This document shows positions 4,413 through 20,224 of a stretch of 25,187 nucleotides of DNA, in pieces. The stretch comes from Oculatellaceae cyanobacterium bins.114 (GTDB taxonomy: Bacteria > Cyanobacteriota > Cyanobacteriia > Elainellales > Elainellaceae), in the NCBI GenBank assembly GCA_033764315.1, contig JANRJA010000124.1, positions 1 to 25,187 on the forward strand, given 5' to 3'. The translations under genes and the position numbers were made by a program. Position 1 is the stretch's first letter; every line of letters begins with the position of its first letter. The notes beneath the pieces were generated by a model, which was given only the letters and a program-made list of their open reading frames with translations, was not told the DNA's origin and did no database searches.

Positions 4413-4482
4413 ACTAGTTCTGCTTTCAAGGAGTTTGTCGCTATAGTCAAATAACGACACTGTTCAATCGCTAGTCTTGTCC

Positions 4483-5205
4483 ATGACTCAAGAGGCACTA
4501 CCTCTATACCTCCAGATTGCCAACGAGCTTCGACGCAACATTGCAGACGCGATTTATCAGTTGGGCGATCAACTCCCCACTGAAGCTGAGTTGAGCATTC
4601 GTTTTGGGGTCAATCGTCACACACTACGACGAGCCATTGAGATTTTGCGCAATGAAGGACTGGTGCGCATCGATCGTGGGCGAGGCACCTTTGTTGCTTC
4701 TGCTCCCATTACCTACCCCATTGGTAAGCGAGTCCGATATAACGAGGCCCTCAAGGCTCAAGGCTTAAATGTGAGCCGCAAAGTGTTATATGTAGCTGAG
4801 ATTTTTGCTGATTCGTCGCTTGTCAAGCGTCTAGAGTTGGGCTTGGGGGATGGGGTGATTTTGCTAGAACGGTTAAGTTTGGCAGATGAGCGACCCATTA
4901 GTGTGAGTACCAGTTACTTTCCATCGGCTCGATTTCCTCACTTTGCCGAACATTGCCAGTCTTATCACTCCATCTCAAAACTGTTGCAACATGAATATGG
5001 CTGTGACCACATTCGTCGCAGCACCCGCATTTCTGCCCGCACGGTGCAACCCAAAGATGCCAAGTTGCTAGAACTGCCCCTCAACGCCCCCATTTTGTTA
5101 ACCGAATCGGTCAATGTCGATCAACAGGGTCAGGTGATTGAATATGGGGTGACGCGCTTTCGGGGCGATCGCATGGAGTTAGTATTTGACAATGAAGTCA
5201 ACTAA
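4483..5205 (+). CDS. phnF: Phosphonate regulator PhnF (GntR/HutC family, UTRA domain)
   Basis: LPTEAELSIRFGVNRHTLRRA HTH, YPIGKRVRY, TRFRGDR; directly upstream of phnC. Confidence 0.92.
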   Translation: MTQEALPLYLQIANELRRNIADAIYQLGDQLPTEAELSIRFGVNRHTLRRAIEILRNEGLVRIDRGRGTFVASAPITYPIGKRVRYNEALKAQGLNVSRKVLYVAEIFADSSLVKRLELGLGDGVILLERLSLADERPISVSTSYFPSARFPHFAEHCQSYHSISKLLQHEYGCDHIRRSTRISARTVQPKDAKLLELPLNAPILLTESVNVDQQGQVIEYGVTRFRGDRMELVFDNEVN

Positions 5206-5398: not shown

Positions 5399-6223
5399 AT
5401 GCAAGACCAACTAACACCCAATGCAGTTGAAATCAGAGATTTAACAAAGTCATTTAAGGTGCAATCGGCGGCCAAGATTGATGTCCTTAAGAAAGTCAGC
5501 TTTTCAGTCGCACGAGGAGAGAGGGTTGCTTTAGTTGGAGCATCTGGTTCCGGTAAATCTACTCTGCTCCGAATTCTCAATGGTCTTCACCAGGCTGATA
5601 GTGGCACAGTTGAGATTTTTGGCATGCCCATTCAAGCCGAGGGCAAGATGCACTCTAAGGTCAGACGACTGCGGAGCCAGATTGGCTTTATCTTTCAACA
5701 GTTCAATCTGGTGAGCCGTCTAACCGTGATTGAGAATGTGTTAGTTGGTAATCTCGCTAATGTTTCTCCAGTGCAATCCATTTTTCGGTGGTTTTCTAAA
5801 GAAGACAGAGAGAGAGCACTGTCGGCATTAGAGCGAGTCGGCATTTTGAATCAGGCTTATAAACGCGCCTCAGCGTTGTCGGGGGGGCAACAACAACGGG
5901 TGGCGATCGCTCGTTGTCTCATGCAAGGAGCCGAGATTATTCTGGCAGACGAGCCCATTGCCTCCCTCGATCCAGAATCCGCTCGCAAAGTGATGGAGTT
6001 GTTGGTCTATCTCAACCGTGAGCATGGCATTACGGTGATTACATCGCTGCATCAGGTGCAAATGGTGCGGCACTACTTCGACCGGGCGATCGCCTTACAA
6101 GGGGGCGAAGTACGGTTTGATGGCAAAACAACCGACCTAGACAACACCCGACTCAATGAGATTTATGGCTCAGCGGCTGAGGAATTAGTGCTATCTGGAC
6201 ACAGTGAAGCCTTAGTTCACTAA
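5399..6223 (+). CDS. phnC: Phosphonate ABC transporter ATP-binding protein
   Basis: GASGSGKST, IFQQFNLV, LSGGQQQRVAIAR, ILADEPIASLDP. Confidence 0.95.
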   Translation: MQDQLTPNAVEIRDLTKSFKVQSAAKIDVLKKVSFSVARGERVALVGASGSGKSTLLRILNGLHQADSGTVEIFGMPIQAEGKMHSKVRRLRSQIGFIFQQFNLVSRLTVIENVLVGNLANVSPVQSIFRWFSKEDRERALSALERVGILNQAYKRASALSGGQQQRVAIARCLMQGAEIILADEPIASLDPESARKVMELLVYLNREHGITVITSLHQVQMVRHYFDRAIALQGGEVRFDGKTTDLDNTRLNEIYGSAAEELVLSGHSEALVH

Positions 6224-6319: not shown

Positions 6320-7372
6320 ATGTTGAAACGACTGTTTACAAAATCGACTGCGGCTGCAACTGTTGCCCTGATTGCTGCAAACTTACTCGCCAGTTGCACA
6401 ATTCCACCTCAAGAAACCAGTTCGGCTGATTCTGCTAGCCCTGCCGCTGAAGGTGCAGCGTGTGCAGCTGAGATTCCTGAAATCGAATTTGGCATTATCT
6501 CAACTGAGTCTCAAGAAAACCTGAAGACTCAGTGGGAACCATTTTTAGATGCGATGGAAGCTGAAATTGGTCGTCCTGTAACCGGGTTTTATGCCACAGA
6601 CTACGCAGGCGTGATTGAGGCAATGGGCGCAGGCAAACTACAAATCGCCTGGTATGGCGGCAAGTCTTATGTCACAGCCGCAGAGCGGTCTAACGCCGAA
6701 GTGTTTGCTCAAACGGTTAACTCTGATGGCACTCAAGGCTACTACTCCTATCTAATCACTAATGTCGATAACCCAATTTTGAAAGAAATCGACGTTCAGA
6801 AAGGCGATGGCGATCAATACGTGGTTAAGAATGCAGCTAATTTGACCTTTGCTTTCAACGACCCCGAATCAACCTCTGGATTCTTGGTTCCCAGCTACTA
6901 CGTTTTTGCCCAAAATAACGTTAACCCCAATGAAGCTTTCAAAGAGTTGATCTTTGCTGGAAGCCACGAAGCAACGGCTCAAGCGGTTGCTAACAATCAG
7001 GTTGATGTTGCCACCAACAACAGTGAATCGTTGGCCAAGTTGGAAGAGTCAGACGCCGCAGCGCGAGCAAAAATTCAGGTCATCTGGACTTCTCCTATCA
7101 TCCCCAGTGACCCGATCGCCTATCGCAATGACTTGCCCGACTGTCTCAAAGAAGATATTCGTGAGTTTTTCTATAGCTACAACGATGCAGCGGTATTAGA
7201 ACCTCTGGGTTGGTCTAAGTTTGTTGAAGCAGAAGATTCACAATGGGACACTATTCGCGAGTTAAACATTGCGAAAGAAATTCTGGAAGTGCAGAATGAT
7301 GCAAACCTCAGTGAAGCTGACAAACAAGCTCGTCTAGATGAACTCAACACACAACTAGAAGCGTTGAAATAG
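6320..7372 (+). CDS. phnD: Phosphonate ABC transporter substrate-binding lipoprotein
   Basis: Lipobox LLASC, FGIISTES, ATDYAGVIEAM, STSGFLVP, GSHE, IPSDP. Confidence 0.93.
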   Translation: MLKRLFTKSTAAATVALIAANLLASCTIPPQETSSADSASPAAEGAACAAEIPEIEFGIISTESQENLKTQWEPFLDAMEAEIGRPVTGFYATDYAGVIEAMGAGKLQIAWYGGKSYVTAAERSNAEVFAQTVNSDGTQGYYSYLITNVDNPILKEIDVQKGDGDQYVVKNAANLTFAFNDPESTSGFLVPSYYVFAQNNVNPNEAFKELIFAGSHEATAQAVANNQVDVATNNSESLAKLEESDAAARAKIQVIWTSPIIPSDPIAYRNDLPDCLKEDIREFFYSYNDAAVLEPLGWSKFVEAEDSQWDTIRELNIAKEILEVQNDANLSEADKQARLDELNTQLEALK

Positions 7373-7504: not shown

Positions 7505-7618
7505 AGGTAGGAAGGCAGGATTTTTGAATAGCCATGCTATGGTCTCAAACCATAGATCTGCAAGCATTCAATCTACAAGATTTCTAATTTATTGCGTCCG
7601 ATCTCGTCGCCTAAAGCT

Positions 7619-8452
7619 ATGCAAGACAAAAAACCCTTAACATCGCCCAATGCCTCTTCATCGCTAACGGTGCAAGACATGTTAGATCGAGAGGAGAAAC
7701 TGGTTACCCCCATCCGCATTGGTTATCTCATCGTCGCGATCGCCCTTCTAATCTATGCTGGCTTCAAAAGTGACCTGAGCTTTGGCGAACTGTTTGAGGG
7801 TGGGGGAAATATGGCAGAGTACATCACTCGCTATTTTCCACCCAATTTCACGAACTGGCGGCTTTATTTACAAGACACCATTGAGACCATTTCGATGGGG
7901 GTATGGGGAACGTTGTTAGCGGCGATCGTCGGGGTGCCTCTATCCATCCTGGCTTCAGAAAATATCTGCCCCAACTGGATTGTGTTTCCAATCCGTCGGC
8001 TTCTAGATGCGATGCGGGCGATTAATGAAGTGGTGTTTGCGTTAATCTTTGTCATTGCAGTCGGTCTAGGGCCGTTTGCAGGAGTGTTAGCTCTGTTTGT
8101 CCACACCGCCGGAACCCTGGGTAAGCTGTTTTCAGAGGCGATCGAAGCGATCGAACCAGGGCAGGTCGAGGGCATTCGGGCGACGGGAGCCAGCAAATTG
8201 CAGGAAATTGTGTTTGGGGTGATTCCTCAAGTCTTACCTCTGTGGACTTCATTTACACTCTACCGATTTGAGGCAAATGTGCGCTCTGCCTCAGTTTTGG
8301 GAATTGTTGGGGCAGGGGGCATCGGCGTTTCGCTATATCAAAGTTTCCGCTCGTTTAAATATCCCCAGGTCTGCGCGATTTTGATTATCTTGATCGTGTC
8401 TGTTTCGTTGATTGACACCCTTTCTGCCAAAATTCGCCAGAAGCTAGTTTAG
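7619..8452 (+). CDS. phnE: Phosphonate ABC transporter permease
   Basis: GLGPFAGVLAL, GKLFSEAIE, YRFEANVRSASVLGIVGAGGIG. Probable ATG at 7619. Confidence 0.94.
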   Translation: MQDKKPLTSPNASSSLTVQDMLDREEKLVTPIRIGYLIVAIALLIYAGFKSDLSFGELFEGGGNMAEYITRYFPPNFTNWRLYLQDTIETISMGVWGTLLAAIVGVPLSILASENICPNWIVFPIRRLLDAMRAINEVVFALIFVIAVGLGPFAGVLALFVHTAGTLGKLFSEAIEAIEPGQVEGIRATGASKLQEIVFGVIPQVLPLWTSFTLYRFEANVRSASVLGIVGAGGIGVSLYQSFRSFKYPQVCAILIILIVSVSLIDTLSAKIRQKLV

Positions 8453-9091
8453 GTAAATGGCTTCAACCACCATCAACTCCCATAGCCACCCAAAACGCAC
8501 TTTTTGCGATCGCACGATTTGAAACTGATTTGAGGTCAATAGGGTATGGAGTTCTGCCTGGGTATAACACTGCTTGTGAGCCGGGTCGAACCACTGCAAC
8601 ACCCAATCGCACATCTGACACACCCAAGAGTCTCGGCACCAATCGAGCAATAGCAGTTTGCCATTGGGTTTGAGCACCCGTTGCATCTCTTGCAAAACAG
8701 TGTCTGGTTGGTCGAAATAGTGAAACGAATTTGCTGAGAGCACTACATCAAATTGACAACTTTGAAATGGTAGCGATCGCGCTGTTGCAACTTGAAATGC
8801 AATATTTGGAAAACTTTTTAGTTTCTGCTGGGCTTGTCTCAACATTTCATCAGAGATATCTACACCCGTGATGGATTGTTGTGGATTTTGAGTGAGTAAT
8901 AATCGCTCTAGTTCTCCAGTGCCACAGGCAATATCGAGCACGATCGCACTCGGAGCTAACTGCATCCAGTCTTTAAAGAACACCAGTGTATTCGTGATGT
9001 ATTGTTGCCAGCGGCGATCGTATTGCGTTGCCAATTGATTATATTGCTGCCGAACAGTGGCTTCTATCTGGCTTTCAACATGTTGAGTCAT
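8444..9091 (-). CDS. Class I SAM-dependent methyltransferase
   Basis: VLDIACGTG, GVDIS, RVLKPNG; 3' end overlaps phnE by 9 nt convergently. Confidence 0.88.
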   Translation of the reverse strand: MTQHVESQIEATVRQQYNQLATQYDRRWQQYITNTLVFFKDWMQLAPSAIVLDIACGTGELERLLLTQNPQQSITGVDISDEMLRQAQQKLKSFPNIAFQVATARSLPFQSCQFDVVLSANSFHYFDQPDTVLQEMQRVLKPNGKLLLLDWCRDSWVCQMCDWVLQWFDPAHKQCYTQAELHTLLTSNQFQIVRSQKVRFGWLWELMVVEAIYLN

Positions 9092-9119
9092 AGATGAGTC
9101 ATAGAGTTGATGAGATGGG

Positions 9120-9794
9120 TTAAATTTTGGATGGCAAATGCCATCGCTCTGGTTGAAAATGGTTCAGTGAAGTCAAAATCTCATCGGCTTCTTGTAACAA
9201 GGCTCGATCAACATAGGTTGCAGGAACGGCCACCACTGACATGCCAGCCCGTTTTGCAGCCGTCACTCCAGCGATCGAGTCTTCAAACACTAAACACTGC
9301 TCTGGGGCTGCCCCTAACCGCTCCGCCGCAATCAAAAAACAGTCAGGCTCAGGTTTGCCCTGAGGCGATTTAGGGTCATCACTCAACACCACACACTCAA
9401 ATAGCTTTAGCCACTCGTGATGATGCGTGATTTTTGCTTGAAAGGGTCGCTGAGTCGAACTAGAAGCGATCGCCTGAGGAATGCCATGTTGATGAAAATG
9501 GTGAGTTAACTCCATCGCACCCGCCATCGGACGCGCCAGAGAATACTGATCATAAATCAGAGCATTCTTTTGAGTCACATAGTCCTGCACCGTCAACGGC
9601 AACTCCAACAAATCAATAATAATCCGAGCCGAATCAGCCGCCATCCGACCAATCACTTTGCTTTGAATCGAGGTGTCAAACACCTTGCCATATTGACTGG
9701 CGATCGCTTGATTCACTTGAGCATGAATAAACTCAGTGTCCAGTAACAATCCATCTAAGTCGTAAATGATGTGGGTGATAGTGTAATCAGGCAT
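9120..9794 (-). CDS. HAD-IA family phosphatase (HDHD1/pseudouridine-5'-phosphatase/GPP-like)
   Basis: YDLDGLLLDTE, IASSS, GKPEPDCF, CLVFEDS. Confidence 0.9.
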   Translation of the reverse strand: MPDYTITHIIYDLDGLLLDTEFIHAQVNQAIASQYGKVFDTSIQSKVIGRMAADSARIIIDLLELPLTVQDYVTQKNALIYDQYSLARPMAGAMELTHHFHQHGIPQAIASSSTQRPFQAKITHHHEWLKLFECVVLSDDPKSPQGKPEPDCFLIAAERLGAAPEQCLVFEDSIAGVTAAKRAGMSVVAVPATYVDRALLQEADEILTSLNHFQPERWHLPSKI

Positions 9795-9848
9795 GGGAAA
9801 AAAAGAAGAGAAAAGAGTGAAAAAAAAGAAAGAAGAGTAAAAAAAGGA
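9795..9848. repeat. A/G-rich low-complexity tract abutting the HAD start codon
   Basis: gggaaaaaaagaagagaaaagagtgaaaaaaaagaaagaagag... Confidence 0.7.
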
Positions 9849-9871
9849 CGTGAGTTATGAGTACATTATGT

Positions 9872-10324
9872 CTACAACAAGCAACTAAAACTCCAACCGT
9901 GTTGTTTAAATCCAAGCGACTCATAAAAGGCATGGGCGCGATCGCGCTTCACATTCGATGACAGCGTGACTTTATAACAACCTGCTTCCTGACTTAATTG
10001 CAATGCCTTTTGCATCATTGCTTTACCAATTCCCTGACTGCGATAGTCAGGGTGAACCGTCACCGAATCCAAAATGGCAGATTTGTGAAACCCCCGGTGC
10101 ATCATTGTCGGTGTCAACAATAAACTAAAAGTACCAACAGGTTCTAGATTGGGTTGATCTGCCAGATGTGCAAGATAGATGGAGTAATCAGGAACTCGGG
10201 CGATCGCTGCAAAGATCTCTGCTATTTGAGGCTCAGGCAGTAATGGCTTGTCATCCATCGCCGCATAGAGAAAGTTTAACAGAGGCAGATCGGTGGAGGT
10301 GGCTATGCGATAGACCAGGTTCAT
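9872..10324 (-). CDS. GNAT N-acetyltransferase (PhnO-like by context)
   Basis: VTVHPDYRSQGIGK acetyl-CoA motif, GCYKVTLSSN, AHAFYESLGF; ATGA overlap with the HD gene. Confidence 0.85.
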   Translation of the reverse strand: MNLVYRIATSTDLPLLNFLYAAMDDKPLLPEPQIAEIFAAIARVPDYSIYLAHLADQPNLEPVGTFSLLLTPTMMHRGFHKSAILDSVTVHPDYRSQGIGKAMMQKALQLSQEAGCYKVTLSSNVKRDRAHAFYESLGFKQHGWSFSCLL

Positions 10325-10866
10325 AACAGACACTGCTTGAGAATCGGCACAAAATGCTCTAGGTCAGGTGTTGGAGCTTGAGGAGTCTTAGCGCGATCAT
10401 CCCACACCCGCAACTGTACTGCCTCTTTAGCATAGGGTTGATGAATAAATTCCTCTGCAGCTTCGGGTAAAAATATCCCACCTTGAAGCTCTAAGCTGTG
10501 CTTTGAGACTGGAGAGAGGGAATCCCAATAGGTTGGGTCAACCACACAGAGATATCGTTTTGCCTCGACATGCAACCGAATCGGCTCTGTCACCGCAGGG
10601 CTAAAGAGTGTTTCCAACACTGGAATCGCCCGATATTCGTGGCGATCGTCAATGTTGCGGTCGGCAACATCTTCTCCTAAGTCATGGATGAGATGACCCA
10701 AATCATGCAGTAAACAGGCGGCAATCAGTTCAGCACTGCGATTGGCAGATTCCGCTAATGTGGCACATTGCAGCGCATGTTCCAGTTGGCTCACCGCTTC
10801 ACGACCATATTGTGCACTACCTTTAGTCGTTAGAATATCCAGAATCGTGTTCAGAGAGATGTTCAT
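10321..10866 (-). CDS. phnZ: Phosphonate-degradation HD-domain protein (PhnZ-like)
   Basis: YGREAVSQLEHALQCA, LLHDLGH, DDRHE, IRLHVEAKRYL, WDDRAK. Probable ATG at 10866 after AAAGGA. Confidence 0.8.
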   Translation of the reverse strand: MNISLNTILDILTTKGSAQYGREAVSQLEHALQCATLAESANRSAELIAACLLHDLGHLIHDLGEDVADRNIDDRHEYRAIPVLETLFSPAVTEPIRLHVEAKRYLCVVDPTYWDSLSPVSKHSLELQGGIFLPEAAEEFIHQPYAKEAVQLRVWDDRAKTPQAPTPDLEHFVPILKQCLL

Positions 10867-10917
10867 CGTAGTAGTTCCTTTGGGGAATAGGGAATAGCGG
10901 AGTGGGAAATTTTGAGT

Positions 10918-10967
10918 ATTAACAATTGACCATTGACCATTAACCATTAACCATTAACCATTGACCA
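10918..10967. repeat. Heptamer tandem repeat (STRR-like), ATT(A/G)ACC x7
   Basis: attaaca attgacc attgacc attaacc attaacc attaacc attgacc; overlaps the 2H gene stop. Confidence 0.85.
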
Positions 10968-11489
10968 GCCTTGATGACATGTCCAGGTGTGGTCAATATG
11001 CCGCTGATAAAAGCGCAACTCCCACTGCACGGGCAATTTCATATCAATATACGTATGAGCCAGGTGAGCCAGTTTCTCGGCATGTTCTGAGGCAAGCTCA
11101 TAGGCGAGGCTGAGGTGCAACCAATCCTTCAGTCGTAGCGGTTCCTGTCGAGTAGGAGAAATCGCCAATTGAGCAACGTTAGTGATAACCTGCTTCAACC
11201 AATCAGATTGAAGCTCTAACCCATGCCAGTCTGGGCGAAAGGTCATCCCCGTAATGGTGATCACGGGATCAGGTGGTGGTGGTGCTTGAGTAAGGGATTG
11301 GGCGATCGCCTCTACATAAATTGGGACTGCGGTTTCGTCATCCTTAAAGAAACCAGTCAAGGTGCAATGAGGCATGTAGTTGTGCGCGGCATTGCGACCG
11401 CAGAGGCGGAGGCTGTGTTCAAAATAGCGGTCGAGTTGTTCGGCTAAATCTCCAAGGGGGCAGGCATAGATGATGAATTGGCTGGACAT
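10947..11489 (-). CDS. 2H phosphoesterase superfamily protein (putative cyclic phosphodiesterase)
   Basis: Two H-x-T/S motifs: PHCTL and LHLSL. Confidence 0.8.
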   Translation of the reverse strand: MSSQFIIYACPLGDLAEQLDRYFEHSLRLCGRNAAHNYMPHCTLTGFFKDDETAVPIYVEAIAQSLTQAPPPPDPVITITGMTFRPDWHGLELQSDWLKQVITNVAQLAISPTRQEPLRLKDWLHLSLAYELASEHAEKLAHLAHTYIDMKLPVQWELRFYQRHIDHTWTCHQGWSMVNG

Positions 11490-11548
11490 AACAGGGTGAA
11501 GTTCTTTAAATAGAGCAATTAGGGACTAACCCGTTTTAGAGTAAATTT

Positions 11549-12187
11549 ATGTCTGTTCAATACTTCCAAAAAATTTATCCCAGTGGATACTTATCTCGGC
11601 TTTCAGACTTAATTGAAGAACGCCTCACACCGGGAGCCGATAAAGAGCAAATTGATGCTCGTATTTGGGATTTGTTTGGTGAACACTGGGCAGTGTTATT
11701 CACCGACTTATCAGGGTTTTCGCGATTTGTCGCAGAATTTGGCATCATTCATTTTCTACAAATCATCTATGAATCTCAACGCATCTTTTCTCCGTGTATC
11801 GACAAATACGATGGCATTTTAATCAAGATGGAAGGGGACAGTATGTTGATTCTCTTTCGTCAGCCCATTAAAGCCCTTCAGTGTGCGATCGACATGCAAC
11901 GGACGGCTAAAGCTTACAACCAAGACAGAATTGATGCTGAAAAAATCCTCCTGTGTGTGGGCATTGGCTATGGCAGAATCTTGACGATCGGAGAACAGGA
12001 TGTGTTTGGGGCAGAGGTGAACGCCGCCAGCAAATTGGGTGAAGACACGGCAAAAGCCTGGGAAATTTTAGTCACCGATTCGGTAGCAGAACAGTTGCAA
12101 GGCGTTCCAGATATTGGTTTAGATAGGGTTGAGACGATTCCTCCGGGTGCAAAAGGCGCGTTCAAAGTCAGTTATCTGCTGGATTAG
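11549..12187 (+). CDS. Stand-alone class III adenylate/guanylate cyclase
   Basis: AVLFTDLSGFS, IKMEGDS, VGIGYG, DVFGAEVNAASKL. Confidence 0.88.
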   Translation: MSVQYFQKIYPSGYLSRLSDLIEERLTPGADKEQIDARIWDLFGEHWAVLFTDLSGFSRFVAEFGIIHFLQIIYESQRIFSPCIDKYDGILIKMEGDSMLILFRQPIKALQCAIDMQRTAKAYNQDRIDAEKILLCVGIGYGRILTIGEQDVFGAEVNAASKLGEDTAKAWEILVTDSVAEQLQGVPDIGLDRVETIPPGAKGAFKVSYLLD

Positions 12188-12207
12188 CGATCGCGGCTCT
12201 GAGCCAC

Positions 12208-13374
12208 TCATGACCCATATTTGGCAACCTCCTGTCCTTGGATATAAACCGATGCGATCGCAGACGGCAGTGAACAGGTCGGCTTGACCAGCAGAAAGTC
12301 AGCATCGAGTCCAGTTGTTATGGCACCTTTGCGATCGCCAATACCCGCTGCGTGAGCAGGATGGGTAGACACCATTTGCCAAGCCGTTTCAAAAGGCATT
12401 AAACCAAGGTCTGCCAGTTTAAAGGGTGCGTTGAACAACGAGGGATAGTGATAATCCGAACAGAGGCAATCCACGACACCCGCCTGAGCTGCGTCTGCCA
12501 CACTCATATAGCCGACATGTGACCCACCTCGAACGAGATTAGGAGCACCCATCAATACGGCTGCCCCATAGTCTTGCGATCGCGCCGCCAAAGGAATCGA
12601 TGCTGGAAATTCAGCGATCGCCACTCCTCGTTTTTGACTCAACGCCACATCTGCCTCCGTTTCATCATCGTGTGATGCCACTGGAATCTGGTTTTGATGA
12701 GCGATCGCAACAAGCCGATCGAGTTGTTGCAATCCTTCGTCTTGTTGCTCTACGGCGGCTGTAATGAGTGCTCGAATCTCTGCATCCGACAATTTGACCC
12801 GCTGCCGCAATCCTTTGGTGTAGCGGGCTAGTGTCTCATCGTCTAGTGTAGGAGGCAAGTGATTATTGAGAGATAACAGGTGAATCTTGCCATTCTTTAA
12901 CCAGTCACACAGTTCCTCATGATCAGCCGTATTTCCTTGTTCATGGCGCACATGAATGCGACTATCGACTTGCAATCGAGTGGGGTCGTTCAACACAAGC
13001 TCAATCACCTGGCGTACCGTGTCTCGACTCCGCAAACCCGGTTCAAAAGAATCAGTAATGGAGTAGAAAAAAGTCGTAATACCCGCTGCTAACAGGGTGC
13101 GATCGTTCTCAGCGATCGCCATCTCCAGCGGAAAGCTCACCCCCGGTCGAGGGCAAATCATCCGCTCAAAGGCATCCCCATGAATATCAACAATCCCTGG
13201 CAGCATATTGAATCCCGTCACATCGATCGCCACATAGCCACTGGGTTTGGTTTGTTGATCAACACTGACAAAGCGACCTTGATCGATTAAAACGGTGGCA
13301 TCCGGGAGCCATCCTGTTGGCGTTAAGACGTTTGCGCCTTGCAAAGCAAGTTTGATGGGCGTAGTTTTGTGCAT
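12208..13374 (-). CDS. phnM: Second PhnM-like amidohydrolase (ribose 1-methylphosphonate 5-triphosphate diphosphatase family)
   Basis: LPGIVDIHGDAFER, ASHDD, AEFP, MGAPNLVRGGSH, CSDYHY. Confidence 0.8.
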   Translation of the reverse strand: MHKTTPIKLALQGANVLTPTGWLPDATVLIDQGRFVSVDQQTKPSGYVAIDVTGFNMLPGIVDIHGDAFERMICPRPGVSFPLEMAIAENDRTLLAAGITTFFYSITDSFEPGLRSRDTVRQVIELVLNDPTRLQVDSRIHVRHEQGNTADHEELCDWLKNGKIHLLSLNNHLPPTLDDETLARYTKGLRQRVKLSDAEIRALITAAVEQQDEGLQQLDRLVAIAHQNQIPVASHDDETEADVALSQKRGVAIAEFPASIPLAARSQDYGAAVLMGAPNLVRGGSHVGYMSVADAAQAGVVDCLCSDYHYPSLFNAPFKLADLGLMPFETAWQMVSTHPAHAAGIGDRKGAITTGLDADFLLVKPTCSLPSAIASVYIQGQEVAKYGS

Positions 13375-13383
13375 GATAGATCC

Positions 13384-14520
13384 TTAGGCTACTCGTTGTC
13401 CTGTTCTGACCACTGAGGTTAATCGGGGAACAATGCCATCATCATGAACGGTAATGAAATCAGCTCGTTTACCGACTTCTAAACTACCGCGATCGCCCTC
13501 TAAACCAATAGCCTTAGCTGAATTCAACGTAAATAATTTAGCGGCTTCATAGAGGGGTTTTTGTGTTTGACGAGTGATTAAAAACATCGCTTGTAATAAG
13601 CTTTGGGGTACGTAATCAGACGAAAAAATATCCACTAAATCCAGTTCTGCTAATTCCAATGCAGAGACATTACCAGAATGAGAACCACCTAACACTAGGT
13701 TAGGAGCACCCATCAACACCTGCAACCCATGTTGCCGAGAAGCTTTTGCCGCATCCAATGTGGTGGGAAATTCAGCAATCACCGCTCCATCAGCGATCGC
13801 TTCTTGCACATGCTCTACTGTCGCGTCATCATGACTTGCCAGCGGAATATTTTGAGTTTGCATTAACTCAACTAATCCTCTTCGGTTAAGTTGAACATAG
13901 TTTTGCTGGGCTTCGATGCGAGATTGAATAAACGCATCAATTTCTGCTTCTGAAATTTGATGTTTACCCATGTAATATTCGCGATATTTTTGCACGTTAG
14001 CAAATTGTCGCTGCCCCGGTGTGTGATCCATCAAAGACACTAGGGCTAATAGTGGATGATCAACAAATTCCTCAGTGACCTGACAAACATGCTCATATGC
14101 CAATTCACACCGCAAATGGAGGCGGTGATCTGCACTTAAACGCCCCTGTTCTTGAGCGTCTGTAATGGCATGGATCATGGGTCCAAATTGGGTCAATCGC
14201 ATCGAGGTGGGAGTAATATCTCCAACGGCGATCGCATCACATACAGTCGTCACCCCTGCACTGACTAATTCGCGATCGTGATACACTACGGCTGCTTCAA
14301 AAGGCCATCGCACTTTAGGACGAGGAGAAATGCATTGTTCCAAGTTATCGGTATGCAATTCAATCAATCCGGGTAGAAGGTAGTCGCCTCCCCCGTTTTG
14401 CCCATGAGCCACAACCCCCAACTGAATATCAGCAATCATTCCATTACGAACCACCAACGTACCCAAAATTTCTTGATCGGGGAGTTGCAGGCGATAGTTT
14501 GTGTAAATGTGTTCATTCAT
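13384..14520 (-). CDS. phnM: Ribose 1-methylphosphonate 5-triphosphate diphosphatase
   Basis: LPGLIELHTDNLE, HLRCE, MDHTPGQRQF, ASHDD, SSDYVP. Start at 14520 or 14529. Confidence 0.93.
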   Translation of the reverse strand: MNEHIYTNYRLQLPDQEILGTLVVRNGMIADIQLGVVAHGQNGGGDYLLPGLIELHTDNLEQCISPRPKVRWPFEAAVVYHDRELVSAGVTTVCDAIAVGDITPTSMRLTQFGPMIHAITDAQEQGRLSADHRLHLRCELAYEHVCQVTEEFVDHPLLALVSLMDHTPGQRQFANVQKYREYYMGKHQISEAEIDAFIQSRIEAQQNYVQLNRRGLVELMQTQNIPLASHDDATVEHVQEAIADGAVIAEFPTTLDAAKASRQHGLQVLMGAPNLVLGGSHSGNVSALELAELDLVDIFSSDYVPQSLLQAMFLITRQTQKPLYEAAKLFTLNSAKAIGLEGDRGSLEVGKRADFITVHDDGIVPRLTSVVRTGQRVA

Positions 14521-14546
14521 GTGAGCCATGAGAGTGAGGAATGACC

Positions 14547-15317
14547 TTAATTATCACTACCAAAGATTAACGTTCGATTACAAATGCGATCGCGCACTTC
14601 ATCATCGTGAAAGATGCCAATCATGGCGCATCCTTGGGCTTTACGCTCTTCGATCAACTGCATCACCACCTCTCGATTGGTTGTGTCTAATGCAGAGGTG
14701 GGTTCATCTAATAACAGAATGGGATAGGGCACTGAGAAGGCACGAGCGATATTCACCCGTTGTTTTTCACCTCCTGAAAATGTAGTGGGAGAGAGACTCC
14801 ATAGCGGTTCAGCCAGGTTGAGCCGAGTGAATAATTCTCGAACGCGATCGCGTGCATTTTCAAGTGTCATACCCAACTCCATCAGAGGTTCTGCGGCGAC
14901 ATCTAACGCCGACACACGAGGAATCACTCGCAAGAATTGACTGACATATCCTATTGTTTTTTGTCGCACCTCAATTAACTCATGGGGTTGCAATTGTGGC
15001 AGATCCACCCAATGGTGTTGATGCTTGACCCAAATCGAACCCCGATCAATACGGTAGTTGCCATAGAGCGATCGCATAAAGGTTGATTTACCAGAGCCAG
15101 AGGCACCAACCAAGGCAACACATTCACCGATTGCCACACGTAATGATGTGCCATGCAATACGTCTAGTTGAATGCTTCCCTGAGCGTGTAGCACAAAGCT
15201 TTTGTAAAGGGAGTCAGCATATAACCGAGTGTTGTCATCCAGGTTGAGCAGCGATCGCTTGTTGTCCAGTTGGGTTGGGTCAGGGGCGATCGGAATGATT
15301 AAATTGTTGCTTGCCAT
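14547..15317 (-). CDS. phnL: C-P lyase system ABC ATPase PhnL
   Basis: KSFVLHAQG, YGNY, VSQFLRVIPRV, PTTFSGGEKQRVNIAR. Confidence 0.93.
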   Translation of the reverse strand: MASNNLIIPIAPDPTQLDNKRSLLNLDDNTRLYADSLYKSFVLHAQGSIQLDVLHGTSLRVAIGECVALVGASGSGKSTFMRSLYGNYRIDRGSIWVKHQHHWVDLPQLQPHELIEVRQKTIGYVSQFLRVIPRVSALDVAAEPLMELGMTLENARDRVRELFTRLNLAEPLWSLSPTTFSGGEKQRVNIARAFSVPYPILLLDEPTSALDTTNREVVMQLIEERKAQGCAMIGIFHDDEVRDRICNRTLIFGSDN

Positions 15318-15342
15318 TGTGTTCTTACTTTTCTGCTAAAAG

Positions 15343-15470
15343 TACTGATACCAATTGAAATAGTGACCAATTTGGTTGAACCAAGCCTTGGAGGAAGGTT
15401 CCCCCAAGCCCCCTCCCTGAGGGACGCGTCTCGTCCCTCAGACTCCCTCCGAAGAGGTTTAGGAACAGTA
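15343..15470. mobile_element. Probable MITE/REP-like element between phnK and phnL
   Basis: Imperfect terminal IR TACTGATACCAA / TTAGGAACAGTA; internal perfect hairpin CTGAGGGACG-n5-CGTCCCTCAG. Confidence 0.5.
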
Positions 15471-15569
15471 GTAAGGCGCGCTTCGCATTAGTCCCAAGTG
15501 CGGTTGTCTCTGTTTTTAAGGGAGGCTTGACCATTGACGATGAACCATTGATCAATCAGGATGAATCTC

Positions 15570-16340
15570 TTACGGCACCAACGTTGCATTGACTAATTGC
15601 TGAGTGTAGGGATGCCGTGGGTCGTCTAGCACCTGATCCGTGAGTCCAGCTTCGACTACCTGACCGTGTTGCATCACCAACAACCGATGGGCTAACAACC
15701 GCACGACGCCAATATCATGGGTGACTAAAACGACACTGAGATGCAGGGTTCGCACGAGCGATCGCATCAGGTCTAACAAACGGGCTTGTACGGATACATC
15801 CAATCCTCCGGTCGGTTCATCCATCAAAATCAAACGAGGTTGCGTCACCAGGACTCGCGCCAATTGCAGACGTTGCTGCATTCCCCCCGAAAAAGTAGTG
15901 GGGAGCATATCCATGCGATCGCGCGTGATCTCAACTTGACTGAGCCAGTCGGCTGCTGCACTGCGAATGTTGCCATAGTGTCGAGAACCAACATTCATCA
16001 GTCGTTCGGCGATATTGGCTCCAGCTGTGACATTCATCCGCAACCCATCTCTGGGGTTCTGATGCACAAAGCCCCATTCGGTTCGCAATAGCGATCGCCG
16101 CTGTGATTCAGCAATGGTTCTCAAATCCAGCAGTGACCCAGATGAACAACGATAAGTTAACTGTCCGTCGTCAATCGGCAGGTTTCCGGCGATCGCGTGT
16201 AACAGCGTCGATTTACCCGATCCTGATTCGCCAATCACACCCAGCACTTGCCCCGGATAGAGGTCAAAGGAGATGCGATCGCAGGCTTGAATCGTGCCGT
16301 AGGTTTTGCTGAGATTGTTAACAATGAGTAGAGGTTGCAT
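15570..16340 (-). CDS. phnK: C-P lyase system protein PhnK
   Basis: GESGSGKST, RTEWGFVHQNPRDGL, FSGGMQQRLQ, LTDQVLDDP. ATG at 16340 overlaps the end of phnJ. Confidence 0.95.
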   Translation of the reverse strand: MQPLLIVNNLSKTYGTIQACDRISFDLYPGQVLGVIGESGSGKSTLLHAIAGNLPIDDGQLTYRCSSGSLLDLRTIAESQRRSLLRTEWGFVHQNPRDGLRMNVTAGANIAERLMNVGSRHYGNIRSAAADWLSQVEITRDRMDMLPTTFSGGMQQRLQLARVLVTQPRLILMDEPTGGLDVSVQARLLDLMRSLVRTLHLSVVLVTHDIGVVRLLAHRLLVMQHGQVVEAGLTDQVLDDPRHPYTQQLVNATLVP

Positions 16341-17316
16341 CTGCCTGTCTCTGATTACAGTAATGAGTATCTGAACAAATCCACATGCGATCGCCCTGGT
16401 CATTGGTGACCACTTCGTCTAAATAGCTCTCAGTGGAACCGCAAAATTCGCAAGCTTTATCCCATTTCTCAACGGTGAAGGGGTGATCTTCAAAGTCTAG
16501 ACTCTTAACCTTGGTGTAGGGTGGAACAGCATAGATCCGTTTTTCTCGTCCGGCTCCAAACAATTGCAGCGCAGGACTCATATCCAGTTTGGGGTTATCA
16601 AACCGAGGAATCGGGCTGGGACGCATCATGTAGCGATCGTGCACCATCACGGGGTAATCGTAAGCAGTGGCAATCTGCCCAAACTGAGTGATGTCTTCAT
16701 ACAGCCGGACATACATCGAACCGTACTCTTCTAGCGCGTGCATTTTGCGAGTTTCAACTTCAGAGGGTTCAATCCACCGCAACGGCTCTGGAATGGGTAC
16801 TTGATACACCATGATTTGCCCCTCCTGTAGAGGCGTTTCGGGAATGCGGTGGCGTGTTTGAATCAGAGTGGCTTGCTCTGTTTGTTCGGTCGTCTCAACC
16901 CCACACACTTTCTTAAAGAAACGTCGAATGTTCACCGCATTCGTGGTGTCATCTGCGCCTTGATCAATCACCTTCAACACATCGTCTTGCCCAATCACCG
17001 ATGCAGTGACTTGAATCCCTCCAGTGCCCCACCCATAAGACATCGGCATCTCACGAGAACTAAAAGGGATCTGGTGTCCTGGAATGGCAACCGCTTTGAG
17101 CAACGCCCGTCGAATCGATCGCTTGGTTTGTTCGTCGAGGTAGGCAAAGTTGAAACCCAGTTCGATCGGGTTGAGTTGAGAAGAGACGCGATTAATCGCG
17201 TCTGTATTGGATAAGTGTTGAGAAGAGATATGATTAATCGCATCTGTACTGGATGAGTGCTGACGATTAATCGCGTCTGTACTGGATGAGTGCTGAGTGA
17301 GAGGGATATCTGTCAT
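16318..17316 (-). CDS. phnJ: Radical SAM C-P lyase PhnJ
   Basis: FNFAYLDEQTKR, GWGTGG, KVIDQGADD, CEFC...CSDTHYC. Confidence 0.96.
   Translation of the reverse strand: MTDIPLTQHSSSTDAINRQHSSSTDAINHISSQHLSNTDAINRVSSQLNPIELGFNFAYLDEQTKRSIRRALLKAVAIPGHQIPFSSREMPMSYGWGTGGIQVTASVIGQDDVLKVIDQGADDTTNAVNIRRFFKKVCGVETTEQTEQATLIQTRHRIPETPLQEGQIMVYQVPIPEPLRWIEPSEVETRKMHALEEYGSMYVRLYEDITQFGQIATAYDYPVMVHDRYMMRPSPIPRFDNPKLDMSPALQLFGAGREKRIYAVPPYTKVKSLDFEDHPFTVEKWDKACEFCGSTESYLDEVVTNDQGDRMWICSDTHYCNQRQADATSTHC
17175..17295. repeat. Three REP-like palindromic units inside the 5' end of phnJ
   Basis: Perfect palindrome AGACGCGATTAATCGCGTCT (17184-17203) plus two degenerate copies; translated as QHxSxTDAIN three times. 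Confidence 0.85.
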
Positions 17317-18488
17317 ACTGTTACCTCCTCAAAGGATTGACCATCCATCACTGGCGATTGACCATCCATCACTGACGATCGCCCCTCCTCATACTTCTGG
17401 CGCATCTTGCGGACTAAGTTGAGTTCAGCTTGAAAGTCAATGTAATGCGGTAATTTCAAATGTTGCACAAAGCCTTGGGCTTCAACATTATCGGAGTGAT
17501 AGAGCACAAACTCTTCGTCTTGAGCCGGACCCACAATTTCTTCACCAAACTCTTTGGCTCTAAGGGAGCGATCGACCAGTGCCATCGCCATCGCCTTGCG
17601 TTCGTTATAACCAAACGTCAATCCATAGCCGCGAGTGAACTGGGGCGGTATTTCTTGGCTACCCTTAAACTGGTTCACCATTTGCACTTCAGTCACAGTG
17701 ATGTCAGCGATCGCCACCTCAAACCCCAGTTCCTCTGGGCAGATCACCACTTCGACATCACCTACTCGAATCTCTCCCGCAAAAGGATGGTTTTTGCCAT
17801 AGCCGCGTTGTGTGGAGTACGCCATGCCCAACAAAAAGCCCTCATCGGCACGGGTCAGGTTTTGCAATCGGGCATCTCGTCCTGTGGGAATGCTAAGCGG
17901 TTGGCGAGTCAGGTCAAATGGAGAGAGGTGAGCATCAGCCGAAGGCAAAGGAGGAGCTGTGAGTGGGGCATGGCTTGACTTTTCTTCCTGAATTAATCCT
18001 TCCTGTCCCAAGGTGTCGATCACACGGGGCACGCTTTCTGAGTTGACTGCGGCCACGGGTGCAACAAAGGCGTTGTTTTCTGCTGCTAATTTAAAGTCGA
18101 GTAATCGATGAATATAGTCGTAGGTTGCTCCTAGACGCTGTCCTCCTGGCACATCCTTGAAAATAGAAGAAATACGGCGTTGCAAGCGCATCTGGCTGGT
18201 ATCGATCGGTTGACTGTAATAGAGTCGGGGCAACGTTGTGCGATAGGCTCTGAGCAAAAAGATCGCTTCTACCAAGTCGCCCCAGGATTGCTTAATTGCC
18301 AATGCTGCTAAGTCAGGGTCATACAAACTACCTTCAGCCATAACACGTGCGATCGCCAATGTCATTTGTTGTTTGATCTGCTCTAACGACAACTCTGGCA
18401 CTTCTGGATCGCCTCGACGCATGGCTTTCAATAGAGCTTCTGCATTTTGAATAGCCTGTTCACCGCCTTTAACTGCAACGTATGCCAT
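17313..18488 (-). CDS. phnI: C-P lyase subunit PhnI
   Basis: YVAVKGGEQAI, EGSLYDP, LRAYRTTLP, HLKLPHYIDFQ. Confidence 0.96.
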   Translation of the reverse strand: MAYVAVKGGEQAIQNAEALLKAMRRGDPEVPELSLEQIKQQMTLAIARVMAEGSLYDPDLAALAIKQSWGDLVEAIFLLRAYRTTLPRLYYSQPIDTSQMRLQRRISSIFKDVPGGQRLGATYDYIHRLLDFKLAAENNAFVAPVAAVNSESVPRVIDTLGQEGLIQEEKSSHAPLTAPPLPSADAHLSPFDLTRQPLSIPTGRDARLQNLTRADEGFLLGMAYSTQRGYGKNHPFAGEIRVGDVEVVICPEELGFEVAIADITVTEVQMVNQFKGSQEIPPQFTRGYGLTFGYNERKAMAMALVDRSLRAKEFGEEIVGPAQDEEFVLYHSDNVEAQGFVQHLKLPHYIDFQAELNLVRKMRQKYEEGRSSVMDGQSPVMDGQSFEEVTV

Positions 18489-18558
18489 AGGAAAGAAAAA
18501 AAGAAAGAAGAGAGAAAAAGAAAAGAGAAGAGAAAAAGAAGAGATAAAAAAGAAAAAA
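18489..18558. repeat. A/G-rich low-complexity tract abutting the phnI start codon
   Basis: aggaaagaaaaaagaaagaagagagaaaaagaaaagagaag... Confidence 0.7.
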
Positions 18559-18578
18559 TTATGAATAATACATCACTA

Positions 18579-19199
18579 TCAACAAGTGGCAGATGTCGTT
18601 CGCGGTAAACCGATCACAGCGTTTTGACTAAACAGCACCACATCAACCCCCAAGGGATAGGAGGCATGGTTGGTTTGCCATTGCTGCCAAAATTGTGGGG
18701 AAAGAGGAGGAGCGATGCCTTGTGATCCACAGATTCCCGGTCCAGTCAGAACAACGGGAGTTCCTCCGTGCAGCGACTCCAGTTGCAGCAATAGCGTGGT
18801 AGACAATTCAGGATATTCCGCCGTGCCCTGATGAAATGTCGTGAGGTCAGGCATCGCAGCAGCATCCCAAATGAGAGCAAAGGTCGCTTGTTGTGGATGG
18901 GAAACGAGTCGGCACCCTGTGTGAAACACGAGCCAATCCGCAACAGGTGCATCCCATCCGGGCTGAAGCCATACCTGTGTTTCTAAATCAAACAACGTCA
19001 AACAAGTAGCGGCACAAGCAGGCATCAAGCCGGAGGGTGATGTGGCATCAGCAGCGATCGCCCCAGAGAGGGACCCAGAGGGGGAAGTGCTTCGCATCAC
19101 CTCGACTCGTCCAGGACGAGCTAGAGCGTCTAAGACCGTTCTAAAGGTGCGTTGAGCGTCATGAACCGCATCTGCAAATCCCGGCAATGAGGTAATCAT
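18579..19199 (-). CDS. phnH: C-P lyase subunit PhnH
   Basis: GFADAVHDAQRTFR, FHTG, GTAEYPELSTTL, LTGPGI, YPLGVD, GLPRTT. Confidence 0.94.
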   Translation of the reverse strand: MITSLPGFADAVHDAQRTFRTVLDALARPGRVEVMRSTSPSGSLSGAIAADATSPSGLMPACAATCLTLFDLETQVWLQPGWDAPVADWLVFHTGCRLVSHPQQATFALIWDAAAMPDLTTFHQGTAEYPELSTTLLLQLESLHGGTPVVLTGPGICGSQGIAPPLSPQFWQQWQTNHASYPLGVDVVLFSQNAVIGLPRTTSATC

Positions 19200-19669
19200 G
19201 ACTCCCCTCGCAGCATCGTAAAAAAGTTGACTCGTGTAGCTTCAACCTGTTGTTGTTGTTGCTTATGGTGCTCTTGGGCTACCTGATTCAACGGCTCAAT
19301 CACAGTGGATTGCACAGCCTCGTGCCAAGTAGGGTGCTGCAACAACGCATCACACAAAGCCGCCAGTTCTGCATGACGGTGCGATCGCCCAGCAACATAA
19401 CCAAATCCGGCAATGGCCTCTGACTCACCTTGGAGTTGCAAACGCACTACACAGCGAGTTAGGGTCATCTCCCCCAGGTAAAAGGGTTGCCCTGTGCCAC
19501 CAGCCCGCCCTTGCACCATTGCCAGCCCAATCTCTGGAGCACGTAATCTCTCATAAGGTGGCAGTTCCCCTAATAAAGTCACCTGATGCTCTAACTGGGA
19601 AAAAGCGGCTTTCGCTAACGTTGACATCCAAGACTGGCGTCGCCGTTGGTCTTGTGTCTGGTCTTGCAT
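19196..19669 (-). CDS. phnG: C-P lyase subunit PhnG
   Basis: RQSWMSTLAKA, GRAGGTGQPFYLGEMTLTRC, ATRVNFFTMLRGE. Confidence 0.94.
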   Translation of the reverse strand: MQDQTQDQRRRQSWMSTLAKAAFSQLEHQVTLLGELPPYERLRAPEIGLAMVQGRAGGTGQPFYLGEMTLTRCVVRLQLQGESEAIAGFGYVAGRSHRHAELAALCDALLQHPTWHEAVQSTVIEPLNQVAQEHHKQQQQQVEATRVNFFTMLRGES

Positions 19670-19695
19670 GAGCACCGTTTAACAAATCCTTAATC

Positions 19696-19715
19696 TTGTA
19701 TAGATGTCTAGACAA
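19696..19715. promoter_or_regulatory. Putative PhnF operator upstream of phnG
   Basis: TTGTATAGATGTCTAGACAA contains the palindrome TGTCTAGACA, which fits the HutC/GntR GTNTANAC pattern. Confidence 0.7.
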
Positions 19716-19746
19716 ATTATAAGATGGGAGGCTTGAGTTCTGTCAA
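19716..19746 (-). promoter_or_regulatory. Sigma70-type promoter of the phnG operon
   Basis: Minus strand TTGACA (19746-19741), 19-nt spacer, TATAAT (19721-19716). Confidence 0.6.
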
Positions 19747-19811
19747 GTGCGGTAGAACACTAACCAATCCCTTGAGAGAGATGAGAAGTGATATATTGGC
19801 AGTTCTAAATT

Positions 19812-19976
19812 AACGTGAATTCGGGATAAGGATTTTGGCGGTTGAAACCGCAACTACAGGAGCAAAAACGACCTGCGTCGGTTCACTCAACCCTTGATTC
19901 TCCGTAGTTCGCGAAGGCGAACTTCGCTCTGATAGCTGCGAATTTATTCGCTAGGCTCTTAAACCGAACTGACGTT
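19812..19976. mobile_element. 165-bp MITE with terminal inverted repeats and a 5-bp direct repeat
   Basis: AACGTGAATTCGGGATAAG...CTTAAACCGAACTGACGTT, flanked by AAATT on both sides; several internal hairpins. Confidence 0.75.
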
Positions 19977-20147
19977 AAATTATTTGTAAAAATTGGTCAT
20001 GGGTCATGGATCGTTGATCCTATGCGCGACTGTTTCAGATCCATTTCAGATCCCCTGTTTCCAGGGATATAACGAGGCACCTTGAGTCAGTTCCAACGAG
20101 AAACCGGGGGATCTAAACCTCTAAATTACACATCGCACCATTCAAAT

Positions 20148-20174
20148 AAAAAAGTACGGCGATCGCACCGTACT
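20148..20174 (-). terminator. Intrinsic terminator downstream of hemJ
   Basis: Minus strand AGTACGG-loop-CCGTACT followed by a T-run. Confidence 0.65.
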
Positions 20175-20224
20175 CTCAGAAGTTATCGAATTCTCTACTC
20201 AAAACAAAGGAAACCGTACACAAG

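Follow-up and report, generated by a model that had tools for sequence, protein, structure and literature searches.

The window analyzed here is a 25,187-nucleotide (nt) stretch of DNA, contig JANRJA010000124.1 of Oculatellaceae cyanobacterium bins.114, and the system in question is its locus for carbon-phosphorus (C-P) lyase. The reading that we favor, at about even chances, is that the window holds an intact C-P lyase regulon without PhnP and PhnN, accompanied by a mosaic of accessory genes whose 2H phosphoesterase would be the best candidate for the step catalyzed by PhnP. The source genome comprises 6.64 Mb in 251 contigs and is 90.7% complete, and the genes on both strands of the window were called from a listing of open reading frames (ORFs) in combination with Pfam and NCBIfam models. 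The phnF and phnCDE genes were located on the plus strand, whereas phnGHIJKLM, of which all seven genes were found intact and in an operon arrangement, were on the minus strand with a second phnM-like gene (phnM2). The phnM2 product fell below the PhnM equivalog cut-off (TIGR02318, 317 bits) and passed the subfamily model NF011987, being 33% identical to PhnM and retaining the conserved PhnM motifs. The ORFs and the Pfam and NCBIfam models bore out the gene list of a first-pass annotation of this DNA, which had placed 2H, HD, GNAT, HAD, and methyltransferase genes after phnGHIJKLM and the second phnM on the minus strand; the run is, however, not uninterrupted, an opposite-strand cyclase gene having been omitted. 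When 13 genes were compared between the window and G262, a genome of the same genus, the ratio of nonsynonymous to synonymous substitution rates (dN/dS) was 0.016–0.12 in all of them and 0.016–0.099 in the five core genes included (phnG, phnH, phnJ, phnL, and phnM), with dS values of 0.95–1.6 that are near saturation. Therefore, these are genuine genes rather than ORFs that arose by chance.

According to the available part of a 2023 review (PMC10574752), PhnP converts 5-phosphoribosyl 1,2-cyclic phosphate (PRcP) to ribose 1,5-bisphosphate, from which PhnN leads to 5-phosphoribosyl 1-diphosphate (PRPP). None of the ORFs scanned in the window matched PhnP or PhnN, as had been stated in the first-pass annotation, and neither was found in the source genome, in which the best scores were 35 bits for PhnP (TIGR03307; cut-off, 272) and 62 bits for PhnN (TIGR02322; cut-off, 156). 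DUF1045 (PF06299) also gave no match in the source genome, although the control genomes gave none either. Furthermore, PhnP and PhnN were above the cut-off in none of 301 sampled genomes of the cyanobacterial class, on which all genome counts below are based and which were divided into 42 PhnJ-positive and 259 PhnJ-negative ones. The lack of PhnP and PhnN is thus general to cyanobacteria, and this agrees with the growth of Trichodesmium on methylphosphonate without PhnN, PhnO, and PhnP, as described in the available part of the same review (PMC10574752).

The 180-amino-acid (aa) product of the 2H gene passed no Pfam or NCBIfam threshold, the scores being 15.8 bits for 2_5_RNA_ligase2 (cut-off, 27) and 13.7 bits for LigT_PEase (cut-off, 23.3), and a profile search of solved structures gave one non-significant match only, to the viral 2H protein 4z5v (E 1.1). 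It has two HxT/S motifs, HCTL at residues 41–44 and HLSL at residues 125–128, in which H41, C42, L44, H125, L126, and S127 were invariant across 27 homologues and T43 was kept in at least 90%; 23 of the 27 homologues matched 2_5_RNA_ligase2 weakly at E ≤ 1, with a best value of 3.7e-6. The AlphaFold (AF2) model built from the alignment of the 27 homologues reached a predicted local distance difference test (pLDDT) score of 94.1 and a predicted template modeling (TM) score (pTM) of 0.87. Among the matches listed by Foldseek against the PDB, those with E ≤ 0.02 were all 2H enzymes or 2H-fold domains, namely cyclic phosphodiesterase (CPDase), YjcG, Usb1, AKAP18, LigT, and ASCC1. Taken together, the motifs, the predicted fold, and the Foldseek matches indicate that this ORF is a genuine 2H phosphoesterase, in line with the name under which it had first been annotated. 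The top Foldseek match was the Arabidopsis CPDase for ADP-ribose cyclic phosphate (Appr>p), 1fsi (E 2e-4, TM 0.59; TM for YjcG, 0.65), which acts on ADP-ribose 1'',2''-cyclic phosphate, a substrate with the ribose 1,2-cyclic phosphate group that PRcP also has, although the identity is only 13–14% and the enzyme belongs to the metabolism of by-products of eukaryotic tRNA splicing.

The closest relatives outside bacteria were the 2H/phosphodiesterase (PDE) domains of the animal UBASH3/Sts proteins ("ecdysteroid-phosphate phosphatase"), which are 32–35% identical over approximately 88% of the protein (profile E, 1e-22 to 1e-26; BLASTP E, 3e-18). This kinship explains the label "ubiquitin-associated SH3 domain-containing protein" that homologues carry in JGI annotations. 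Both HxT/S motifs are conserved in the PDE domain of UBASH3/Sts/TULA; however, the animal domain is one part of a UBA-2H-SH3-histidine phosphatase signaling protein, whereas the protein in the window stands alone with 180 aa and is linked to phnM. With respect to PF06299 (DUF1045/RcsF), none of the 27 family members matched at E ≤ 1, and 2fsq, a DUF1045 structure, ranked only 32nd in the Foldseek search with the 2H model (TM 0.34). The family is therefore distinct from DUF1045, cyanobacteria-centered, and UBASH3/Sts-PDE-like, and we found no earlier description of it; the literature on phosphonate metabolism that was covered, to which most subscription journals do not belong so that the evidence is weak, described neither a cyanobacterial 2H family nor sets of phnM, 2H, and HD genes without a C-P lyase core. 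As a separate observation, in a metagenomic protein of 397 aa (P0122), a 2H domain sharing 47% identity with that of the window is joined to a hexapeptide-repeat (LbH) transferase domain; this is one protein on one 3.4-kb contig and possibly an artifact of gene calling.

The replacement of PhnP by a 2H enzyme, the central idea here, is already in the literature: it has been proposed for the 2H family RcsF/DUF1045 in proteobacteria, as far as the available parts of the sources go (PMC3840354, citing Huang 2005; PMC10574752, citing Podzelinska 2009; PMC11893972). The likeness is close, in that RcsF/DUF1045 is also a 2H enzyme whose gene lies in C-P lyase clusters devoid of phnP and whose proposed reaction is the hydrolysis of PRcP, as stated in the accessible text of two of these sources (PMC3840354, PMC10574752). 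The family described here differs, however, in belonging to another sequence family that is cyanobacteria-centered and often unlinked to phn genes, and in having a model that resembles CPDase, YjcG, and LigT.

The genomic linkage of the 2H family was examined in the best 80 of 180 confirmed loci, with the neighboring genes mapped by tblastn with the proteins of the window. Twenty-four of the 80 loci were phn-linked, each having real phn core genes; L041, L049, L066, and L080 were dropped from this class, for they had been assigned by ABC-ATPase cross-matches at 21–32% identity alone. In 19 of the 24 loci, the 2H gene was the next one after phnM or phnM2 in the same orientation, at a distance ranging from an overlap to approximately 260 bp. 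The phn-linked loci represented the clade of the window (phnGHIJKLM-M2-2H-HD), Pleurocapsales/Xenococcaceae/Spirulinaceae (phnM-2H), single Planktothrix and other metagenome-assembled genomes (MAGs), and two MAG loci labeled Chloroflexota (L055 and L075). The distribution of phn linkage required nine changes on a quickly built tree, at least four of them being forced by well-supported branches. The phnM2 gene itself was seen to adjoin the 2H gene in 11 of the 24 loci, including the Chloroflexota MAG locus L055.

At the level of genomes, the 2H family was present in 40 of the 301, comprising 27 of the 42 PhnJ-positive and 13 of the 259 PhnJ-negative ones, and the enrichment in PhnJ- and PhnM-positive genomes was approximately 13-fold by rate. 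These counts ignore kinship, and no P value is attached to the co-occurrence because related genomes do not count as independent samples. By a manual count of genera, the family was found in 17 of 25 PhnJ-positive and 5 of 124 PhnJ-negative genera. Within genus g9, one genome had both PhnJ and the 2H family and one had neither, and in genus g71, a strong 2H orthologue was present in the two PhnJ-positive genomes only. Ten genomes had orphan 2H loci; PhnJ was encoded elsewhere in five of them (a Trichodesmium MAG, Okeania, Plectonema, Leptolyngbya, and Oscillatoria) and was not found in the other five (three Planktothrix, Rivularia, and Halomicronema).

Several observations weigh against the assignment of the 2H protein to the PhnP step. 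PhnJ was missing from 13 of the 40 genomes bearing the 2H family (3 of the 13 being weak matches), and conversely, 15 of the 42 PhnJ-positive genomes were without the family. In five further PhnJ-positive genomes (G053, G161, G288, G202, and G204), its gene was a fragment or stop-bearing, and in genus g56 an intact copy was missing from all five PhnJ-positive genomes. Not every genome with C-P lyase, therefore, needs the 2H protein. In addition, 56 of the 80 2H loci had no phn gene in the available flanks, and the 2H family tracked PhnM (31 of 48 PhnM-positive against 9 of 253 other genomes, three of the nine being weak matches) slightly better than PhnJ. Regarding the HAD gene, its orthologues (at least 47% identity) were found in 41 of the 301 genomes, 16 of the 42 PhnJ-positive and 25 of the 259 PhnJ-negative ones, so that its link with PhnJ is weak and its occurrence reflects lineage more than the presence of PhnJ. 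It adjoined the 2H gene in 4 of the 24 phn-linked loci and in six Planktothrix-type loci. The conserved linkage to phn genes that the first-pass annotation had put up for testing in the 2H and HAD genes was found for the former and is weak for the latter.

The gene contexts outside phn clusters were clade-specific. In the six Planktothrix-type loci, a PstS-like gene came after the 2H-HAD pair, some of these loci also having a CHAD gene upstream, and three Planktothrix genomes carried the 2H-HAD-PstS arrangement and no PhnJ; in four Nostocales-type loci, an FHA-GAF-cyclase gene was upstream and a gene for a large PBP_like_2/DUF4912 protein downstream. The phosphorus (P)-related neighbors in these two types of loci fit a broader role of the 2H protein in phosphate scavenging. 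It may thus be, although we regard this as unlikely, that the 2H protein, with the HAD protein where present, is a general P-starvation enzyme that scavenges 2',3'-cyclic nucleotides or other cyclic phosphodiesters and that its proximity to phn genes results from a shared P-starvation response, for which the PhnJ-negative carriers of the family also speak. The nearest characterized sequence relative, the Sts-1 PDE domain, is likewise a 2',3'-cyclic nucleotide phosphodiesterase with a physiological substrate that is not known, as described in the available part of PMC10218301. The tight operonic position immediately behind phnM or phnM2, seen in 19 loci of several clades, and the enrichment in PhnJ- and PhnM-positive genomes are difficult to reconcile with such a general role, and the contexts in Okeania and Trichodesmium (a response regulator and an EamA transporter) and in Halomicronema (a prepilin peptidase and a WHD protein) contain no P-related neighbors. 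As for the 2',3'-cyclic nucleotide activity, PhnP itself is also active on 2',3'-cyclic nucleoside monophosphates (cNMPs) in vitro, and such activity therefore does not discriminate between a PhnP-like and a general scavenging role.

Considering the sequence evidence on both sides, the 2H protein is a credible PhnP analogue from another family. In the favored route, all functional steps of which we infer, the 2H protein would open PRcP to a ribose bisphosphate in place of PhnP, and the HAD protein might conceivably release inorganic phosphate (Pi) from the ribose bisphosphate, replacing the PhnN route to PRPP. The steps to be replaced are those of Escherichia coli PhnP, a phosphoribosyl cyclic phosphodiesterase of metallo-beta-lactamase fold, and PhnN, a ribose 1,5-bisphosphokinase; the folds are, however, unrelated, and a phosphatase exit would yield Pi and ribose phosphate but no PRPP. 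A comparable outcome, ribose 5-phosphate and Pi, is said to have been reported by Ghodge et al. in 2013 for a PHP-family cyclic phosphate dihydrolase of Eggerthella lenta, a non-orthologous replacement of PhnP, in which, unlike in the proposed route with 2H and HAD proteins, a single PHP-fold enzyme of unrelated sequence carries out both hydrolyses. The 2H-HAD pairs recurred in the phn clusters L009, L010, L035, and L053 as well as beside PstS-like genes, and in G204, the HAD gene was located directly after phnM. The closest solved relative of the HAD protein was human HDHD1A/pseudouridine-5'-phosphatase (PDB 3l5k/9m7l; E 2.5e-53 over residues 2–222), and the protein failed the beta-PGM/YqaB subfamily model TIGR02009 (119 bits; cut-off, 153).

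The HD protein aligned with TmpB (6npa, E 1e-33) and PhnZ (4mlm, E 6e-23) and passed TIGR03276, "phosphonate degradation HD-domain oxygenase," which makes it a C-P-cleaving oxygenase by type rather than a phosphohydrolase in an exit route. As a member of this diiron oxygenase family, together with PhnZ/TmpB/PhnZ1, it would provide a second, oxidative cleavage route, with 1-hydroxyalkylphosphonates as the presumed substrates. Known pathways of the PhnZ/TmpB type pair the oxygenase with a 2-oxoglutarate hydroxylase of the PhnY/TmpA type, according to the available part of PMC10574752. The HD gene of the window differs in lacking this partner and in having phnM and the 2H gene as its recurrent neighbors. 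No PhnY/TmpA-type hydroxylase was found in the window, and a search of the genome with PF02668 gave a single TauD-family gene, which is clavaminate-synthase-like and scored 28.8 bits against 400 with the TmpA model. The GNAT protein, which failed the PhnO model NF007530 (31.7 bits; cut-off, 142) and is a generic GNAT, might perhaps acetylate aminoalkylphosphonates as PhnO does. The methyltransferase was also generic, with no equivalog above the cut-off, and an identity as ArsM was rejected, the match being confined to the SAM-binding core; it recurred in the phn-linked loci L009, L015, and L045 and, 7.4 kb away, in the Hyella locus L018. In L018, a type I restriction-modification system (10721–16734) was observed between phnM-2H and a methyltransferase-GNAT pair whose members are 49% and 59% identical to those of the window, and this arrangement suggests that phnM-2H-...-methyltransferase-GNAT is the ancestral order.

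The first-pass annotation had taken the five accessory genes to be a module of the C-P lyase locus's own. A single exit route for the products of C-P lyase, to which all five would be dedicated, is consistent with their being on the same strand, with the conservation of their order in G262, with purifying selection on all of them, and with the presence of all five in L009. However, the complete set of five was confined to the window, G262, and L009 (in the last of which the GNAT gene is elsewhere); the order of the five, including the antisense cyclase, was kept only in G262, whereas the other relatives in the family keep M2-2H-HD only. Because, in addition, the HD protein belongs to an oxygenase family and the HAD, GNAT, and methyltransferase genes vary independently of one another, we consider a single dedicated route highly improbable. 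The accessory genes are a variable, lineage-specific mosaic and not a single pathway, with phnM(2)-2H-HD as its conserved core. In the literature, cyanobacterial clusters have been described as phnC-E and phnG-M with "accessory/hypothetical" genes (PMC5955973, from the part available).

The conserved core also occurs without C-P lyase. PhnM (E ≤ 1e-40) was present in 48 of the 301 genomes, seven of which had no PhnJ; one of the seven, G115, was discarded as an assembly gap, phnL being located at a contig end. The remaining six (G246, G297, G299, G096, G267, and G059), which belong to four families (f1, f9, f17, and f40) and are 94–99% complete, had PhnM scores of 460–487 bits (TIGR02318 cut-off, 390.55), and PhnI was absent from all five that were tested, namely those PhnJ-less genomes with PhnM and the 2H family. 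The 2H family was found in five of the six and the HD gene beside phnM in four, the arrangements being phnM-2H-HD in G246 and G297, phnM-2H-permease in G299, phnCDE-TauE-phnM in G096, phnCDE-phnM-HD in G267, and phnM-HD in G059. A phnM-2H pair without PhnJ was also present in Hyella L018 and in two Pleurocapsales/Xenococcaceae MAG genomes, the completeness of which is not known. The loci with such core-less sets are L099, L100, L101, L102, L104, L106, and L018. In G246, the phnM-2H-HD trio lay in an island with genes for a LysR regulator, a DAO-type oxidase, a HAD protein, a phnF-like regulator, a PF01663 enzyme, and a binding protein. A comparison of G246 with G297, which are of one genus (dS 0.2–0.3), gave dN/dS values of 0.06 for phnM, 0.19 for HD, and 0.31 for 2H, showing that within this genus the three genes are under purifying selection.

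These sets are either recent 3' remnants of deleted operons or a trio that works without the C-P lyase core. If the latter is the case, phnM, 2H, and HD would constitute a module that is independent of PhnGHIJKL, kept by selection, and docked onto the operon in the window, so that the substrate of the 2H protein need not be PRcP. The purifying selection, the recurrence in nearly complete genomes of four families and in the Hyella-type loci, the island in G246, and the lack of a PhnY/TmpA-type partner for the HD protein in the source genome are all compatible with such a module. Nevertheless, what is retained corresponds exactly to the promoter-distal genes that a deletion of phnG-L would leave, or in genus g27 to the separate phnCDE-phnM operon. 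The 2H protein of genus g13 is unusually divergent, with 46–48% identity against 60–65% for other members, and its gene shows the weakest constraint of the trio (dN/dS 0.31); moreover, the known PhnM reaction requires the product of PhnI, and the apparent case of G115 proved to be an assembly gap. An independent module thus seems to us rather improbable, about as much so as the general P-starvation role, and the replacement of PhnP by the 2H protein is the reading that we retain.

The positions of the genes and the evidence for their assignment are listed in the table.

Table. Genes of the C-P lyase locus and its accessory region, by position in the window.
Gene or product	Coordinates	Strand	Evidence
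phnF, GntR/UTRA regulator	4477..5205	+	TIGR02325, 228 bits (cut-off, 157)
phnC, ABC ATPase	5399..6223	+	TIGR02315, 295 bits
phnD, phosphonate-binding protein	6320..7372	+	TIGR03431, 324 bits
phnE, permease	7592..8452	+	TIGR01097, 314 bits
Class I S-adenosylmethionine (SAM) methyltransferase	8444..9091	-	Methyltransf_25/11, E 1e-26; dN/dS 0.076
HAD-IA phosphatase, HDHD1A/pseudouridine-5'-phosphatase-like	9120..9794	-	HAD_2, E 1e-24; dN/dS 0.044
GNAT acetyltransferase	9872..10333	-	Acetyltransf_1, E 2e-16
PhnZ/TmpB-type HD-domain oxygenase	10321..10947	-	TIGR03276, 233.1 bits (cut-off, 214.6)
2H phosphoesterase, 180 aa, candidate PRcP phosphodiesterase	10947..11489	-	Motifs, fold, homologues
Class III nucleotidyl cyclase, small stand-alone, 212 aa	11549..12187	+	Guanylate_cyc, E 3e-12; Ma1120-type cyclase, E 4e-14
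phnM2, PhnM-like amidohydrolase	12208..13374	-	NF011987, 527 bits (cut-off, 253)
phnM	13384..14529	-	TIGR02318, 499 bits (cut-off, 391 [390.55])
phnL	14547..15317	-	TIGR02324, 329 bits
phnK	15570..16403	-	TIGR02323, 371 bits
phnJ	16318..17316	-	PF06007, 506 bits
phnI	17313..18488	-	PF05861, 534 bits
phnH	18579..19199	-	TIGR03292, 198 bits
phnG	19196..19675	-	TIGR03293, 175 bits

The cyclase gene on the opposite strand separates phnM2 from the 2H gene, with spacers of 20 bp to the stop codon of phnM2 and 59 bp to the start of the 2H ORF. Owing to this antisense gene, the accessory genes would have to be read through it or be transcribed from a promoter inside it. The cyclase was 91% identical in G262, with a dN/dS of 0.057, and tblastn gave no match to it in the 80 2H loci or in the loci of relatives other than G262; it is a genus-specific insertion. 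An FHA-GAF-cyclase gene was separately observed directly upstream of the 2H gene on the same strand in the four Nostocales-type loci (L023, L027, L030, and L032). The adjacency of cyclase and 2H genes in two unrelated settings may reflect chance, control of P-starvation genes by cNMPs, or transcriptional interference. A partnership of the 2H protein with the adjoining cyclase in cNMP signaling was rejected as the principal explanation, because 2H enzymes are not known to hydrolyze 3',5'-cNMPs. A search for the Pho box gave no match at up to three mismatches with a three-repeat consensus that may itself be wrong, and a scan for promoters and terminators over positions 8300–20400 gave fewer sites than in shuffled sequences.

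Other genes were observed around the locus. A PAS-GGDEF-EAL protein is encoded at 21848–24151 (minus strand), approximately 2 kb past phnG, and is, with the cyclase, the second nucleotide-signaling gene near the locus. Directly upstream of phnF is a gene for a PIN-PhoH fusion protein (3057–4412, plus strand), and a TIR-domain protein of 149 aa is encoded at 764–1213 (minus strand). Two overlapping ORFs at 1822–2112 and 2034–2327 (plus strand) each match one half of the Uma2 endonuclease family, N-terminal and C-terminal, respectively, and this pair, spanning 1822–2327, probably represents a single gene with a frameshift.

Growth on methylphosphonate with release of methane is known from cyanobacteria such as Trichodesmium, which have no PhnN, PhnO, or PhnP, as described in the part of the review that is available (PMC10574752). 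The recovery of P from PRcP made by PhnJ is therefore an open step, and it is relevant to methane formation and P cycling in the ocean. The 2H protein is a specific and testable candidate for this step, being present in 27 of the 42 sampled PhnJ-positive genomes and also in a Trichodesmium MAG and Okeania. The phnM/2H/HD sets without a C-P lyase core were unexpected, and they suggest that PhnM may have a role outside the canonical C-P lyase pathway. Moreover, the kinship with UBASH3/Sts offers a prokaryotic model for a PDE domain whose substrate is not known, according to the available part of PMC10218301. If the phnM/2H/HD module should prove to be autonomous, the accessory genes would represent a second pathway docked onto C-P lyase and not an exit route, and PhnM and the 2H protein would act on another substrate chain, which could provide a small-molecule lead toward the substrate of the animal Sts/UBASH3 PDE domain.

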